Positions 2,901 through 10,490 of a DNA stretch of 10,490 nt are shown in pieces (position 1 is the stretch's first letter; each line of letters opens with the position of its first letter). The position numbers and the translations under genes were made by a program. The DNA comes from a virus. The notes below the pieces were generated by a model. It did no database searches, was not told the DNA's origin, and worked only from the letters and a program-made list of their open reading frames with translations. The stretch lies in UHGV virus genome UHGV-1632715, one strand, 5' to 3'.

Positions 2901-3354
2901 ACAGCAAATCCGGCTGGTCTGCCGTCAGTGCATGGACCGCTGCCGGGCGGGTGAAACGTGGCCCCCGGACCTGGCTGAGTTTGTTGCGCTGATTTCGGAG
3001 AGTGGGGCAAATCCATTTGGTCTTACGGTGGATGCCGTGATGGAAGAGTACCGGCGCTGGCGCAATGAATCCTGGCGATACGACGGGAGTGATAAATACC
3101 CGTGGCCACAGCCTGTGCTGTACCACATCTGCCTCGAAATGCGTACCAGAGGGATTGAGCGCCAGATGACGCAGGGTGAGTTAAAACGACTTGCGGAACG
3201 GCAACTGACGAAATGGGCAAAGCATGTTGGTAACGGGATGAGTGTTCCGCCAGTGCGACGACAACTGGAAGGGGCGAAACACCCGCAAGGGCCAACGCCA
3301 ATTGAACGGCTGAAACAGGAATACGAACGCCGGAAGGCAGCTGGTTTTATTTGA
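2692..3354 (+). CDS. Replication protein P-like (helicase loader family of lambda P)
   Basis: By-eye similarity to lambda P: YPWPQPVLYHICLEMR vs YPWKSNAHYWLVTNLYQNMR, GMSVPPVRRQLEG vs GEAIPEPVKQLPVMGG, and an upstream TMTEQQ-like segment. ATG 2692 is preceded by GGGGGG at 2681-2686. It overlaps the initiator gene by 209 nt in another frame; alternative starts are 2812 and 2893. Confidence 0.7.
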   Translation: MQHQVARHHGQFRKSGQHANSGNVTTDLSATETAWKLWELMGEVYSNRWTQKNGAAPSKLWIAQIGTMTEQQIRLVCRQCMDRCRAGETWPPDLAEFVALISESGANPFGLTVDAVMEEYRRWRNESWRYDGSDKYPWPQPVLYHICLEMRTRGIERQMTQGELKRLAERQLTKWAKHVGNGMSVPPVRRQLEGAKHPQGPTPIERLKQEYERRKAAGFI

Positions 3355-4814: not shown

Positions 4815-5272
4815 GAGAGGTTAACTATGAGGCGCTTCGTGAGGCAGCACAAAACTATCAGTCGACGCTGGCGTGGTATCAGGCTATCCCGGACAGCCCA
4901 AATGCTGAACGGGATTGTGATGCGGCTCTTGCTGCGTTTAAGCGTCACATCCGTCATCGGGAAGCGGATATTATCGCTGATTTGCTGGATGGACTGGAAG
5001 AAGCAAAATCACAACTCAAAGAGCAGCGTGAGTATTACGAAGGCGTTATCTCTGATGGGAGCAAGCGTATTGCTGAACTGGAAGCGCGGGAAGTTCAATT
5101 ACCGACTCGCTACGACCTTCGATATGGACACCCGATAAATGCAGATGAGCGACATGTCATGATACCTAAAGAAAATGGCAGTTGGCTTTACCTGATTGAC
5201 CTAGAACACGCATTACGCGTCTCTGGCATTCGCATCAAAGGAGAGGAGCATGGAAATAAAACCAGAGGATGA
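4811..5272 (+). CDS. Hypothetical phage protein
   Basis: 153-aa ORF whose ATG overlaps the previous stop (ATGA); GGAGG at 4798-4802. No family recognised. Confidence 0.6.
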   Translation: MREVNYEALREAAQNYQSTLAWYQAIPDSPNAERDCDAALAAFKRHIRHREADIIADLLDGLEEAKSQLKEQREYYEGVISDGSKRIAELEAREVQLPTRYDLRYGHPINADERHVMIPKENGSWLYLIDLEHALRVSGIRIKGEEHGNKTRG

Positions 5273-5606
5273 GTTAAGCAATATCGTTTTATTTCCGGTA
5301 AAAGAGGATGACCCTCGTAATCAGGTTAATTTTCTTTATGAGCCATCGGAAAGACCATATTGTCATCACGCCTCTGTCCGGGTTGACGAAAAAGAGCGTC
5401 AGGTCCGCTGTAAAATCTGCGGTGCAGTTGTGGAGCCATTTGACTGGATGCTCTCTGTGGCGAAAAGAGAAACCAGACTGGCAGATGATGTAAGGCACTT
5501 GCGCCAGGAGGAGCGGGAAAGGCGAAAAAATATAGAAAAGCTAATTCAGATTGAGCGTAACGCGAAAGCGCGGATACGCAGGGCGACAAAATCCAGAACT
5601 GAATAA
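5250..5606 (+). CDS. Hypothetical protein with zinc-ribbon-like motif and basic coiled-coil tail
   Basis: 118-aa ORF with CHH...CKICG spacing and a C-terminal RQEERERRKNIEKLIQIERNAKARIRR. Overlaps the upstream gene by 23 nt. Confidence 0.55.
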   Translation: MEIKPEDELSNIVLFPVKEDDPRNQVNFLYEPSERPYCHHASVRVDEKERQVRCKICGAVVEPFDWMLSVAKRETRLADDVRHLRQEERERRKNIEKLIQIERNAKARIRRATKSRTE

Positions 5607-5699
5607 TTAAATTTAGCTCTGTTAAAAATTTAATCCTTAACCGGAGGGATTTCTGCACCCTCAGAACATCAGGAGGCCGCCCGAAAGGGCGGTAGTTAA

Positions 5700-5882
5700 A
5701 TGCGAAAGTTTAAAATAATTATTGAAACGGGAATAGCCGGTGGAGATTTCGAGGATGAATTCGAAGTGGATGATGATGCGACGCCTGATGAAATACATGA
5801 CGAAGCAAAAGATATTTTCTTTAACTACTGCAATTACTCATATCACGAAATAAAAGACGAAGAGGAAGAGCAAAATGGCTGA
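5700..5882 (+). CDS. Small highly acidic protein (60 aa)
   Basis: About 20 Asp/Glu against 5 Lys/Arg by my count. AGGAGG at 5671-5676 is separated from the ATG by a 6-bp GNRA-loop hairpin (5677-5692). Confidence 0.5.
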   Translation: MRKFKIIIETGIAGGDFEDEFEVDDDATPDEIHDEAKDIFFNYCNYSYHEIKDEEEEQNG

Positions 5883-6051
5883 TTTTGGTTCAACTAAATA
5901 CAACGTCAGTTTTGAAGCATGGCATGAACTGTTAATGGACTATGCAGAGTTACGTGGTGGCAGTGCTGCTGATGCTGAAGCATGGCGTGATGATTATGAA
6001 GCAGGAAAAACTCCGGTCGAAGCATATTGTGATGAGTGGGGCGATGAATGA
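5875..6051 (+). CDS. Small acidic protein (58 aa), not in the ORF track
   Basis: Hand translation: MADFGSTKYNVSFEAWHELLMDYAELRGGSAADAEAWRDDYEAGKTPVEAYCDEWGDE. Its ATG overlaps the upstream stop (ATGGCTGA) and its stop overlaps the next ATG at 6048. Confidence 0.4.
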   Translation: MADFGSTKYNVSFEAWHELLMDYAELRGGSAADAEAWRDDYEAGKTPVEAYCDEWGDE

Positions 6052-6563
6052 GCGAGATTAATTATCAGGAAGGGCATGAAACGGCAGGGGAGGCAAAAAC
6101 AGTTGCATGGCGATATCGCTACGTGAAAAAAGACGTTACAGACTTTCAGGGGAAGCCGTGGGCTGGTGACTGGAAATATGTACCGACAAAAGAGGATTGT
6201 AACGACAGGCCGAACTATGAAATTCAGGCCTTATTCATCGGCCCGCCAGTCCCGGTGACATCAGAAGGACTGGTTAAAGCCGTGCGCTTTTATGAACAGG
6301 TAAAGCGTGAGAATCCGCCAGTCGAAACAGGAGCATGGAAGGATGCTGTTGACTGGGTGCTCAGAGAGGCCTGCTGCGCTGCCATTCTGGGTAAAGCCGA
6401 CAATCCACCAGCATCCGGCAATCAGGTTAGCGAATTAACAATGTGGGTTAAACGACTGGTCAGTCAACTGAAAAAAGCTCAGCCGGACTGCAAATTACCG
6501 GAGAAGGCGATGGATTACCTGAAACGAAATGGACTGATAAGCGTGGAGGATGTTTTACGATGA
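6048..6563 (+). CDS. Hypothetical phage protein
   Basis: 171-aa ORF, translationally coupled to the upstream small ORF. No family recognised. Confidence 0.6.
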   Translation: MSEINYQEGHETAGEAKTVAWRYRYVKKDVTDFQGKPWAGDWKYVPTKEDCNDRPNYEIQALFIGPPVPVTSEGLVKAVRFYEQVKRENPPVETGAWKDAVDWVLREACCAAILGKADNPPASGNQVSELTMWVKRLVSQLKKAQPDCKLPEKAMDYLKRNGLISVEDVLR

Positions 6564-6683
6564 ATATTTAGACTAAAGAGTTTGTAACGCTATGTAAGTG
6601 ATTTTTTCTGGTTTAGATATTTATATGTCCGGCCAAATTGAGGTGTGTTTAAATGTTATTGCACATTGATTGTAGGGGGAATA

Positions 6684-6863
6684 ATGAAAAACGCATTGCA
6701 GTTTTTGTTTGTTGCGTTCTGGTTGTTCGCATCATGTATGCCCATCATCTTCACAGCAAGGTATATGGAAAAAATTGATGTTTTGATATTAATGTTTGGA
6801 CATATAAATGCCCTTTTTTTAGGGGTGTTCATGGCGGTCATGTGCATTGAATACTGGCGGTAA
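6684..6863 (+). CDS. Small hydrophobic protein (59 aa, two predicted TM helices) in AT-rich island
   Basis: ATG 6684 is preceded by AGGGGGA at 6673-6679. Hydrophobic segments ALQFLFVAFWLFASCMPIIF and INALFLGVFMAVMCIEYW. Base composition is visibly lower in GC than the flanks. Confidence 0.4.
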   Translation: MKNALQFLFVAFWLFASCMPIIFTARYMEKIDVLILMFGHINALFLGVFMAVMCIEYWR

Positions 6864-6918
6864 ATACAGCGAACGCCATTGGTTTAGTTGGATATTTACT
6901 GTGCCGGACAAAAACGGT

Positions 6919-6946
6919 TTGCGGGGAAATCTTAGTTAAGTAGAAT
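6919..6946 (+). promoter_or_regulatory. Candidate promoter for hok mRNA (-35 TTGCGG, 16-bp spacer, -10 TAGAAT)
   Basis: Hexamers at 6919-6924 and 6941-6946; the predicted start lies just upstream of the tac-like 5' element. Confidence 0.35.
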
Positions 6947-6950
6947 AACT

Positions 6951-6964
6951 GCGGGTGCTTGAGG
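6951..6964 (+). promoter_or_regulatory. 5' element of hok mRNA (tac-like) complementary to the 3' fbi-like element
   Basis: GCGGGTGCTTGAGG is the near-perfect reverse complement of CCTCAACGCACCCGC at 7329-7343, with one unpaired base. Confidence 0.55.
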
Positions 6965-7065
6965 CTATCTGTCTCAGGCATGAACACCAAAAGGCAGATA
7001 GAGAAAAGCCCCAGTTAACATTACGCGTCCGGCAAGACGCTTAACATTAATCTGAGGCCATATCT

Positions 7066-7272
7066 ATGCTCTACACACGTAGGTTAGCCTCTTACGGACC
7101 GAAAGGTCAAGGAGAAGCAGGCTATGAAGCAGCAAAAGGCGATGTTAATCGCCCTGATCGTCATCTGTTTAACCGTCATAGTGACGGCACTGGTAACGAG
7201 GAAAGACCTCTGCGAGGTACGAATCCGAACCGGCCAGACGGAGGTCGCTGTCTTCACAGCTTACGAACCTGA
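7066..7272 (+). CDS. mok-like overlapping reading frame (modulator of hok translation)
   Basis: 68-aa ORF in a different frame that starts 58 nt upstream of hok and spans almost all of it, as in hok/mok loci. Confidence 0.45.
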   Translation: MLYTRRLASYGPKGQGEAGYEAAKGDVNRPDRHLFNRHSDGTGNEERPLRGTNPNRPDGGRCLHSLRT

Positions 7273-7279
7273 GGAGTAA
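7124..7279 (+). CDS. hokD: Hok/Gef-family type I toxin (HokD/RelF-like), 51 aa
   Basis: Hand translation MKQQKAMLIALIVICLTVIVTALVTRKDLCEVRIRTGQTEVAVFTAYEPEE matches my recollection of HokD. Flanked by the mok-like frame, 5'/3' complementary elements and a terminator. Below the ORF-track length cutoff. Confidence 0.85.
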   Translation: MKQQKAMLIALIVICLTVIVTALVTRKDLCEVRIRTGQTEVAVFTAYEPEE

Positions 7280-7328: not shown

Positions 7329-7343
7329 CCTCAACGCACCCGC
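7329..7343 (+). promoter_or_regulatory. 3' fbi-like element of hok mRNA
   Basis: Complementary to 6951-6964; it lies between the hok stop and the terminator. Confidence 0.5.
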
Positions 7344-7349
7344 ACTTAA

Positions 7350-7377
7350 CCCGCTTCGGCGGGTTTTGTTTTTTCCT
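7350..7377 (+). terminator. Rho-independent terminator of hok transcript
   Basis: Stem CCCGC / GCGGG with a UUCG tetraloop (7350-7363), followed by the T-run ttttgttttttcc. Confidence 0.7.
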
Positions 7378-9714: not shown

Positions 9715-9793
9715 CGTAAAAACTGCTTCAATTCCGGTACGCTTCGCAAAGCCGTACCACGAGGCGAATAGCAGACATGGACATTTGAAAGAG

Positions 9794-9816
9794 CCCGCTT
9801 TTTGCGGGTTTTTTTA
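9794..9816 (+). terminator. Rho-independent terminator (tR'-like)
   Basis: Stem CCCGC / GCGGG with loop TTTTT, followed by the T-run ttttttta. Confidence 0.8.
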
Positions 9817-10146: not shown

Positions 10147-10466
10147 ATTTGTGGTAAATGGGCGGCTGGTGGGTGTGGTGGTTGTTGCTTTCCCGTTGCT
10201 GAAAAAGAAAGCATCAGGCGATTAGCAGGGTATCAGTTACCCGTTGAAATTTTTAAATACCTCACAATTCAGGCGGTTGACTGTTGTCTGGTTTGCGGGG
10301 AGTTTGTTAAAAGAAACTGGCATGGTGAATCCCCCTGTGCGGAGGGGCAATCAGCAACTGGTGTTTTGTCACCGACCCTTATCCTTTCTGTGCGGGTTCA
10401 GGTGCTGATACTGAACTCACCGGGAGGCACCCGGCACCATGCAATGGCACATAGCGCCACTCTCCA

Positions 10467-10490
10467 GCCCCTCTCCGGAGGGGCTTTCTT
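10467..10490 (+). terminator. Hairpin with short T-rich tail, possible terminator, truncated by window end
   Basis: Stem GCCCCTC / GAGGGGC with loop TCCG, followed by tttctt. Confidence 0.35.

Follow-up and report, generated by a model that had tools for sequence, protein, structure and literature searches.

A portable Shine–Dalgarno–hairpin cassette ahead of two very acidic small genes and of unrelated accessory genes in E. coli lambdoid prophages

We report that a short Shine–Dalgarno (SD)–hairpin cassette, located directly upstream of two small and very acidic genes in a viral DNA, is a portable unit that, in lambdoid prophages of E. coli, heads accessory genes of at least four unrelated families. 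The DNA analyzed, hereafter called the window, is a stretch of 10,490 nt from the virus genome UHGV-1632715. The reading that we prefer, with a probability of about 0.6, is that the two acidic genes ORF1 and ORF2 are coupled accessory genes standing behind a portable split ribosome binding site (RBS) of the T4 gene 38/25 type, which serves as a recombination linker as well.

The leader of ORF1 and its reuse

The features needed for the following discussion are listed by their window positions:

5250..5606, + strand: ORF0, 118 aa, PHROG 1621; ends 93 nt before ORF1 and lies outside the cassette
5633..5699, + strand: conserved long leader, from AATCCTTAACC to the start codon; kept before ORF1 and before unrelated genes
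5644..5662, + strand: second hairpin, GAGGG-AUUUCUGCA-CCCUC; weak (−5.8 kcal/mol, z −1.9)
5671..5676, + strand: Shine–Dalgarno AGGAGG, 23 nt 5' of the ATG; duplex with the 16S 3' end −10.3 kcal/mol
5672–5694 plus flanks, + strand: 25-nt cassette GGAGGCCGCCCGAAAGGGCGGTA, comprising SD and hairpin
5677..5692, + strand: hairpin CCGCCC-GAAA-GGGCGG, 6 bp; occupies 16 of the 23 nt of the SD-to-start spacer
5693..5699, + strand: spacer UAGUUAA, 7 nt, A/U-rich, without SD
5700..5882, + strand: ORF1, 60 aa, net charge −15, pI 4.05; Pfam DUF7167, PHROG 1997
5862..5865, + strand: GAGG Shine–Dalgarno of ORF2, 9 nt 5' of the ORF2 ATG, as read from the sequence
5875..6051, + strand: ORF2, 58 aa, net charge −11, pI 4.06; PHROG 519
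6048..6563, + strand: ORF3, 171 aa, PHROG 660, related to the Ead/Ea22- and DUF551-type tail

The first-pass annotation of this DNA had pointed out the AGGAGG at 5671–5676, the 23-nt gap and the 6-bp GAAA hairpin at 5677–5692, and all three were reproduced at exactly these positions. The spacer (5677–5699) is 23 nt long, of which 7 nt are left between the hairpin and the ATG, and a TAA at 5697–5699 closes the upstream frame. For the hairpin a folding energy of −12.4 kcal/mol (z −3.3) is predicted; an additional seventh pair, G5676–U5693, is possible and brings the predicted value to −14.4 to −15.5 kcal/mol. Both arms have a predicted unpaired probability of 0.00 and are hence paired in essentially the entire ensemble. 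The chance expectation for the exact cassette in the window is 0.00. Upstream of ORF1 no exposed SD other than AGGAGG was found. The arrangement corresponds to that of a split RBS, for which the SD should lie more than about 15 nt from a start that has no exposed SD at the canonical distance, and in which the hairpin is situated wholly between SD and AUG; the effective spacing is 7 nt here, with about 5–11 nt as the criterion. The 3' arm itself contains an SD-like GGGCGGU (anti-SD pairing −8.3 kcal/mol), which is locked in the −14.4 kcal/mol stem.

Some further features of the leader deserve mention. The earlier assignment of the loop as GNRA is right for the GAAA found here, but it does not extend to the haplotypes that carry a GGCA loop. 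When the full leader is folded, the SD is predicted to be just 34% unpaired, with UCCU (5634–5637) pairing with AGGA (5671–5674). The long leader contains two SD-like strings (GGAGGG at 5643–5648 and AGGAGG) and two anti-SD-like strings (UCCU at 5634–5637 and CCCUC at 5658–5662), and alternative conformers are conceivable. The second hairpin at 5644–5662, also flagged at first pass, is there as a sequence but could not be upheld as a functional structure: a G-to-T change breaks its central pair, uncompensated, in 20 copies, and the element is absent from the short-leader contexts. It is probably under no structural constraint. Upstream of 5633 the sequence is without conservation. There, at 5616–5633, gctctgttaaaaatttaa is similar to the boxA and spacer of lambda nutL (gctcttaaaaattaa), apart from two small insertions (two indels). 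A lambda-type nut site should have a boxA with a boxB hairpin within about 8 nt, be conserved and lie just downstream of an early promoter; here the GCCC-GAAA-GGGC stem is about 45 nt off, the position is deep inside the operon and the stretch varies between haplotypes. Because of this missing conservation the resemblance is probably due to chance, and we rejected the nut site.

The search of the leader against Rfam gave no family match at gathering or permissive thresholds, and neither a terminator nor a promoter was found in a scan of the leader. An intrinsic terminator could be dismissed, as 5000–7200 contains no terminator-like site and the tail after the stem, UAGUUAAAUG, has no U-tract. 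The terminator scan covered 5000–7200 only. Two G+C-rich stems followed by U-tracts fall outside this range, at 7340–7366 (cccgcttcggcgggtttt) and 9790–9816 (gcccgctttttgcgggttttttt), immediately ahead of the ORFs that begin at 7366 and 9816. Judged by sequence, and in contrast to the hairpin of the ORF1 leader, these resemble ordinary intrinsic terminators.

A scan of 662 mechanical ORF starts from 17 sources for the layout of a distant SD plus an intervening hairpin furnished only copies of the cassette and one weak unrelated case, and some of the copies precede other genes. The systematic extraction of the cassette drew on 337 fetched loci. In these, GGAGG-CCGCCCGAAAGGGCGG-TA precedes four gene families:

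DUF7167 proteins: spacer of 6–7 nt
DUF4014 membrane proteins of 72 aa: spacer of 6 nt
MTELTKE/MAELTKE Ead- or DUF551-type proteins: spacer of 8–9 nt
MQEIKENIRQQL family: spacer of 9 nt

Indeed, the start codon lies 6–9 nt past the hairpin in all four families, although the spacer sequences differ; the spacers are A/U-rich and no SD was found in them. The ATGs served in this way are independently annotated CDS starts. Among the fetched loci we counted 259 leader copies of the long type. The 61-nt long leader occurs at 3132 places in 2355 of the 5426 complete E. coli genomes (~43%), with up to 7 copies per genome, and these copies are never annotated. In phage records it was detected in 19 only, all of them E. 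coli lambdoid phages. The cassette sequence was not found in the searchable literature.

We next describe what is joined at the cassette. The Stx phage ArgO145 carries a 70-aa gene, ending in ...CGATTAA, that is linked through the cassette to ORF1, and its DUF4014 gene has the long leader in front. E. coli ATCC 25922 shows the reverse arrangement: a 90% identical homolog of the 70-aa gene is linked through the cassette to DUF4014, and ORF1 follows the long leader. In the four-way alignment each upstream flank is thus seen with each downstream gene (4/4 combinations), and the switch takes place within the 25-nt cassette. Genes are exchanged at the cassette, and since it is repeated, it provides a patch of homology for gene exchange between prophages.

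The variation among the leader copies gives a mixed picture of constraint. Across 25 ORF1 leader haplotypes the length from SD to ATG is invariant, and the GGAGG core of the SD is kept in nearly all copies. About 91% of the leader copies fold at −13 kcal/mol or better; a destabilized stem is present in about 5–9%. Within the 25 haplotypes, 93.7% of the stem cells are paired; 12 cells preserve the pair by wobble, 11 break it, and there is a single compensatory change, from G-C to A-U. This is no excess over 500 shuffles, and the covariation test of the stem was hence not significant, with a result no better than the shuffled controls. Among 43 nucleotide haplotypes the stem is the most polymorphic part of the leader, varying at 8 of 12 sites, whereas the conservation of SD, loop and spacers equals that of codon positions 1–2. 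The polymorphism of the stem could be caused by tolerance of G-U pairs or by a quasi-palindrome mutational hotspot. At one locus (L105) the leader is identical at 61 of 62 nt, while the ORF1 protein is 72% identical and the sequence further upstream unrelated. Another lineage, whose protein is 75% identical, has kept GGAGG and each of the 12 nucleotides of the stem, while loop (GGAA) and spacer have changed. To judge from these two comparisons, the data would favour a constraint on the leader. Five loci have lost the SD and half of the stem with ORF1 intact. DUF7167 homologs of ≤70% identity have an ordinary SD 7–9 nt upstream, showing that the hairpin belongs to the E. coli prophage lineage and not to the protein family.

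How the cassette may work

In the reading that we prefer, ORF1 would have no conventional RBS, its sole exposed SD being the AGGAGG 23 nt upstream. The very stable GAAA hairpin of 6–7 bp would fold and take up 16 of the 23 spacer nucleotides, which would set the AGGAGG about 7 nt from the AUG and allow initiation. The same 25 nt, often within the 61-nt leader, would supply the RBS to unrelated accessory genes, and the repeated copies would give homology where accessory genes swap between prophages. Because the stem covariation is not significant, we infer rather than demonstrate an RNA mechanism in which the folded hairpin is what makes initiation work. With this limit, the first-pass suggestion that the hairpin brings the SD to a working distance is borne out and broadened: the fixed geometry, the sole exposed SD and the occurrence before four families argue for it.

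The main rival, which we nevertheless consider very unlikely, inverts the role of the stem. Here the hairpin would mask the working SD, namely the GGGCGGU in its 3' arm 6–7 nt from the AUG, with AGGAGG acting as a standby site or being irrelevant, and expression would need melting of the stem by a translating ribosome from upstream, a helicase or temperature. Indeed, GGGCGGU is at an ideal distance from the AUG with its anti-SD pairing of −8.3 kcal/mol; however, opening the stem costs about 14 kcal/mol for the 8 gained, so that masking is energetically disfavoured. In the short-leader contexts the stop codon of the upstream gene lies 5 nt before the SD, and terminating ribosomes could thus open the stem, but in the window ORF0 stops 93 nt upstream, which is too far for translational coupling. 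Masking would be in line with the persistence of stem-weakening variants in 5–9% of the copies, and with loci of the L009 type, which retain only the 3' arm and a 4-bp stem and have an intact ORF1. What pure masking leaves unexplained is that AGGAGG or GGAGG abutting the stem is conserved before every gene family; additionally, it is clear from the T4 precedents that a hairpin of this kind can be accommodated by ribosomes.

It is also unlikely, in our estimate, that the cassette is an element acting at the level of DNA or RNA stability with no special role in initiation. It could then be a recombination linker, a module boundary, an mRNA-stabilizing or -processing stem-loop, a weak terminator or a pause site, and its position by start codons would merely reflect that mosaic junctions fall at gene boundaries. 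The four flank combinations joined at the cassette and its presence up to 7 times per genome agree with this, as does the stem, which lacks significant covariation and is hypervariable, as quasi-palindromes can be in DNA. The missing terminator-like U-tract and the missing Rfam match speak against it. More directly, no separate SD lies between the hairpin and the start of the downstream genes, so the cassette must supply their RBS, and the distance from hairpin to start is held at 6–9 nt in four unrelated families with differing spacer sequences. C-to-U changes that keep a G-U pair are common on the 5' arm (coding strand) and would point to an RNA structure, but chance transitions give the same pattern.

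Going beyond the split RBS, one may speculate that the leader is an express-and-exchange cassette, a self-sufficient split RBS open to acquisition by any small gene, with which Red/RecET-type recombination swaps small genes whose products, the two acidic proteins among them, serve counter-defence or modulate nucleases, the turnover of this cargo being sped up. We regard this extended proposal as rather improbable. It loosely resembles an integron, from which it differs in that exchange here proceeds by homologous recombination.

The acidic proteins and their surroundings

The finding of two adjacent, very acidic small ORFs, with net charges of −15 (60 aa) and −11 (58 aa), was confirmed. ORF1 contains 9 D and 11 E versus 4 K and 1 R. 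It matches Pfam DUF7167 (PF23768) with 55.1 bits (E 7.9e-15), above the gathering cut-off of 24.4 bits, residues 2–53 aligning to profile positions 1–60 of 60. ORF2 matched no Pfam family; PHROG 519 matches it at E 2e-22 and covers only profile positions 76–137 of 143. The ORF2 domain is also present in longer proteins, among them a NADAR fusion. The GAGG of ORF2 is embedded within the ORF1 codons for the acidic C-terminus. The two genes overlap by 8 nt (ATGGCTGA), an overlap seen in 192 of the 196 loci having both genes, and ORF2 and ORF3 overlap by 4 nt (ATGA). Among the 43 nucleotide haplotypes, synonymous and nonsynonymous variants number 21:20 in ORF1 (expected under random change, 93:447) and 15:18 in ORF2 (expected 102:420), and third codon positions are the most polymorphic. 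Judged by this pattern, by their family matches and by their overlap, ORF1 and ORF2 are genuine overlapping genes under purifying selection that should be translationally coupled; by its ATGA overlap, the translation of ORF3 would in turn be coupled to that of ORF2. RefSeq annotates both ORFs, ORF1 under the name DUF7167 family protein. ORF2 had been described as absent from the ORF track, which was incorrect: it is in the list of the mechanical ORF finder and in RefSeq (WP_000753058.1), and therefore is not an overlooked gene.

The TAA at 5697–5699, in frame before the ORF1 ATG, is GAA in about one third of the haplotypes. In these, gene callers place the ORF1 start further upstream, reading through the hairpin, and call a protein of 87 aa. 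The protein clusters concerned are P0002, P0003 and P0006. In the representative of P0003 (n = 139) the canonical ATG of ORF1 is AGG, which leaves the upstream start only.

The window is the nin-like, early accessory part of an E. coli lambdoid prophage of the Rac/Qin type, with replication genes upstream and a sok/hok module, DUF968 and RusA downstream. A 481-nt region spanning the finding is present in 2544 of the 5426 complete E. coli genomes, and in 695 of these records the best copy is ≥99% identical. In ArgO145 the same genes are located in the early-left ead/Ea22 region, so that the module moves between accessory regions. As to the neighbours, ORF0 (5250–5606) contains two CxxC pairs with a weak zinc-ribbon match and has a basic, coiled C-terminal tail. 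The sok antisense RNA (Rfam RF01794, 109.5 bits) lies at 6953–7126 and overlaps the hok/mok-type ORFs 7066–7272 and 7124–7279; together (6953–7279) they are a type I toxin–antitoxin module within the prophage. In ATCC 25922 the locus equivalent to this module is annotated as hokD. A match to the sRNA STnc100 (RF02076, 132.5 bits) at 10291–10490 is cut by the end of the window.

Both proteins stand out by their charge. Acidic residues make up 33% of ORF1 and 26% of ORF2, and the net charge per residue is −0.25 and −0.19, respectively, with all other window ORFs within about −0.04. The median net charge is −13 (range −18 to −6) in a set of 61 DUF7167 proteins, whose sources are enterobacterial or are Yersinia, Pseudomonas and Enterococcus, and −10 (range −15 to −4) in 32 ORF2 relatives. 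Strong acidity is thus a family-wide trait in both families. DUF7167 relatives were found in Klebsiella, Citrobacter, Yersinia, Pseudomonas and in 140-kb Enterococcus herelleviruses, and have in common the nearly invariant motif FEVxDDATxEEIxxEA. The nearly invariant acidic positions of ORF1 are E22, D25, D26 and E35. A search of 1.84 billion proteins gave 58 representative clusters of ORF2 relatives, and in the ORF2 family an aromatic core (F13, W16, W37, Y41) is conserved together with G44 and P47. A β-hairpin plus helix is predicted for ORF1, and three helices for ORF2.

Different genes follow the DUF7167 homologs of ≤73% identity, and 198 phage records, mostly of virulent Ackermannviridae, contain an ORF2 relative without DUF7167. 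We therefore ruled out an obligate two-protein system of ORF1 and ORF2, since other genes follow the diverged DUF7167 and relatives of ORF2 do without it; the two families are, by their distribution, independent modules. Together they span Enterococcus herelleviruses, Ackermannviridae, T5-like and lambdoid phages. A DUF2800/PD-(D/E)XK exonuclease overlaps or abuts the DUF7167 homolog in Klebsiella Guernseyvirinae (L217:3501–5025, L219:3501–5025), and in an IMG/VR contig a RecA-dependent (Ref-like, PF16786) nuclease adjoins a DUF7167 homolog (L096, downstream of 2677). An ORF2-type domain (71% identical) forms the C-terminal part of a NADAR-domain fusion protein in Escherichia phage EP_H11 (L221:2506–3162), and also in phage IME392. 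The NADAR family is linked to the reversal of ADP-ribosylation. As a functional clue we set the fusion aside, two T5-like phages being too thin a basis. The nuclease neighbours and the fusion are weak leads toward nucleic-acid enzymes. PHROGs lists both PHROG 1997 and PHROG 519 under unknown function, PADLOC and NCBIfam gave no match for ORF1 or ORF2, and a literature search on DUF7167, the RefSeq accessions and the PHROG ids returned nothing useful. Our leading guess is that ORF1 and ORF2 act by binding a host or phage nucleic-acid enzyme.

A more specific idea, already raised at first pass, is that the two proteins are DNA mimics or electronegative decoys that block DNA-binding defences of the host, such as restriction, BREX or RecBCD-like nucleases. 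This idea is about the proteins and can hold alongside a split RBS in the leader. The high negative charge behind this idea held up and is conserved family-wide, with acidic residues at 33% and 26%, and ORF1 has the near-invariant E22, D25, D26 and E35. Both genes sit in early accessory regions; in unrelated phages DUF7167 genes are found beside the PD-(D/E)XK/DUF2800 exonuclease and the Ref-like nuclease, and the ORF2 domain is joined to NADAR in two T5-like phages. A precedent is TifA, a small acidic protein that inhibits type IV restriction enzymes and is not a strict DNA mimic (PMC11322646). No relationship to a known mimic emerged: models and sequences of ORF1 and ORF2 showed no fold or sequence similarity to any solved protein, mimics included, and PADLOC has no match. 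Since it is only the charge that speaks for it, we treat the mimic as a plausible guess and, on the whole, a somewhat unlikely one. As the DUF7167 and ORF2 families are without assigned function and spread across distant phages, they are, at a guess, reasonable candidates for a counter-defence screen.

Comparison with known systems

If our preferred reading is true, gene finders and RBS calculators systematically mis-score the starts served by the cassette. The cassette would furthermore be a compact natural part for structure-dependent translation, and it would give a concrete sequence basis for the reshuffling of small accessory genes among lambdoid prophages.

For the proteins, the closest comparison is with Ocr of T7, ArdA and TifA of the Enterococcus phage phi47, which like ORF1 and ORF2 are small early phage proteins very rich in Asp/Glu. 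The Asp/Glu share is 29% in Ocr and 21% in TifA, compared to 33% in ORF1 and 26% in ORF2. ORF1 and ORF2 are, however, much shorter than Ocr and ArdA and have no detectable sequence or fold similarity to them. TifA was considered as a possible relative and set aside; its description gives an SH3-like predicted fold and a different phage type. A curated assignment is that of ORF1 to DUF7167 (PF23768)/PHROG 1997, a full-length match above the curated threshold to a family without assigned function.

For the leader, the comparison is with the split initiation regions of T4 genes 38 and 25, reportedly described by Nivinskas et al. in 1999 and by Malys and Nivinskas in 2009. To our knowledge, hairpin-bridged RBSs are documented for a couple of T4 genes and regarded as curiosities. 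A hairpin cuts the SD–AUG spacing of gene 38 from 22 to 5 nt and that of gene 25 from 27 to 11 nt, both with support from mutations and probing; the gene 25 structure is limited to close T-even phages (PMC3014915). ORF1 shares several features with them. In all three cases the distance from SD to AUG is too large (23 nt for ORF1 against 22 and 27 nt in T4), the stem-loop lies wholly in between and leaves an effective spacing of 5–11 nt (7 nt for ORF1), no other SD is exposed, and the arrangement is confined to a shallow clade with distant homologs using ordinary sites. The proof differs, since the T4 structures are established by mutation and chemical probing, whereas ours is read from sequence with covariation that is not significant. 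The reuse differs as well: T4 has one structure per gene, but here a near-identical 25-nt unit stands before at least four unrelated families, at recombination junctions.

The second comparison is with the boundary sequences of lambdoid phages. A linker idea is attributed to Susskind and Botstein, and boundary sequences were reportedly noted at lambdoid mosaic junctions in the comparisons of the HK620/HK97 era. Like these, the cassette is short, conserved and intergenic, borders accessory genes that can replace one another, and is the point where alternative flanks meet. Its 25–61 nt are within the homology length used by Red/RecET-type recombinases. What sets it apart from the boundary sequences is the SD–hairpin–start architecture, through which it would also serve expression. 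The proteins, in summary, belong to known families, while the leader is a new, reusable, widespread and unannotated form of a known translation device.
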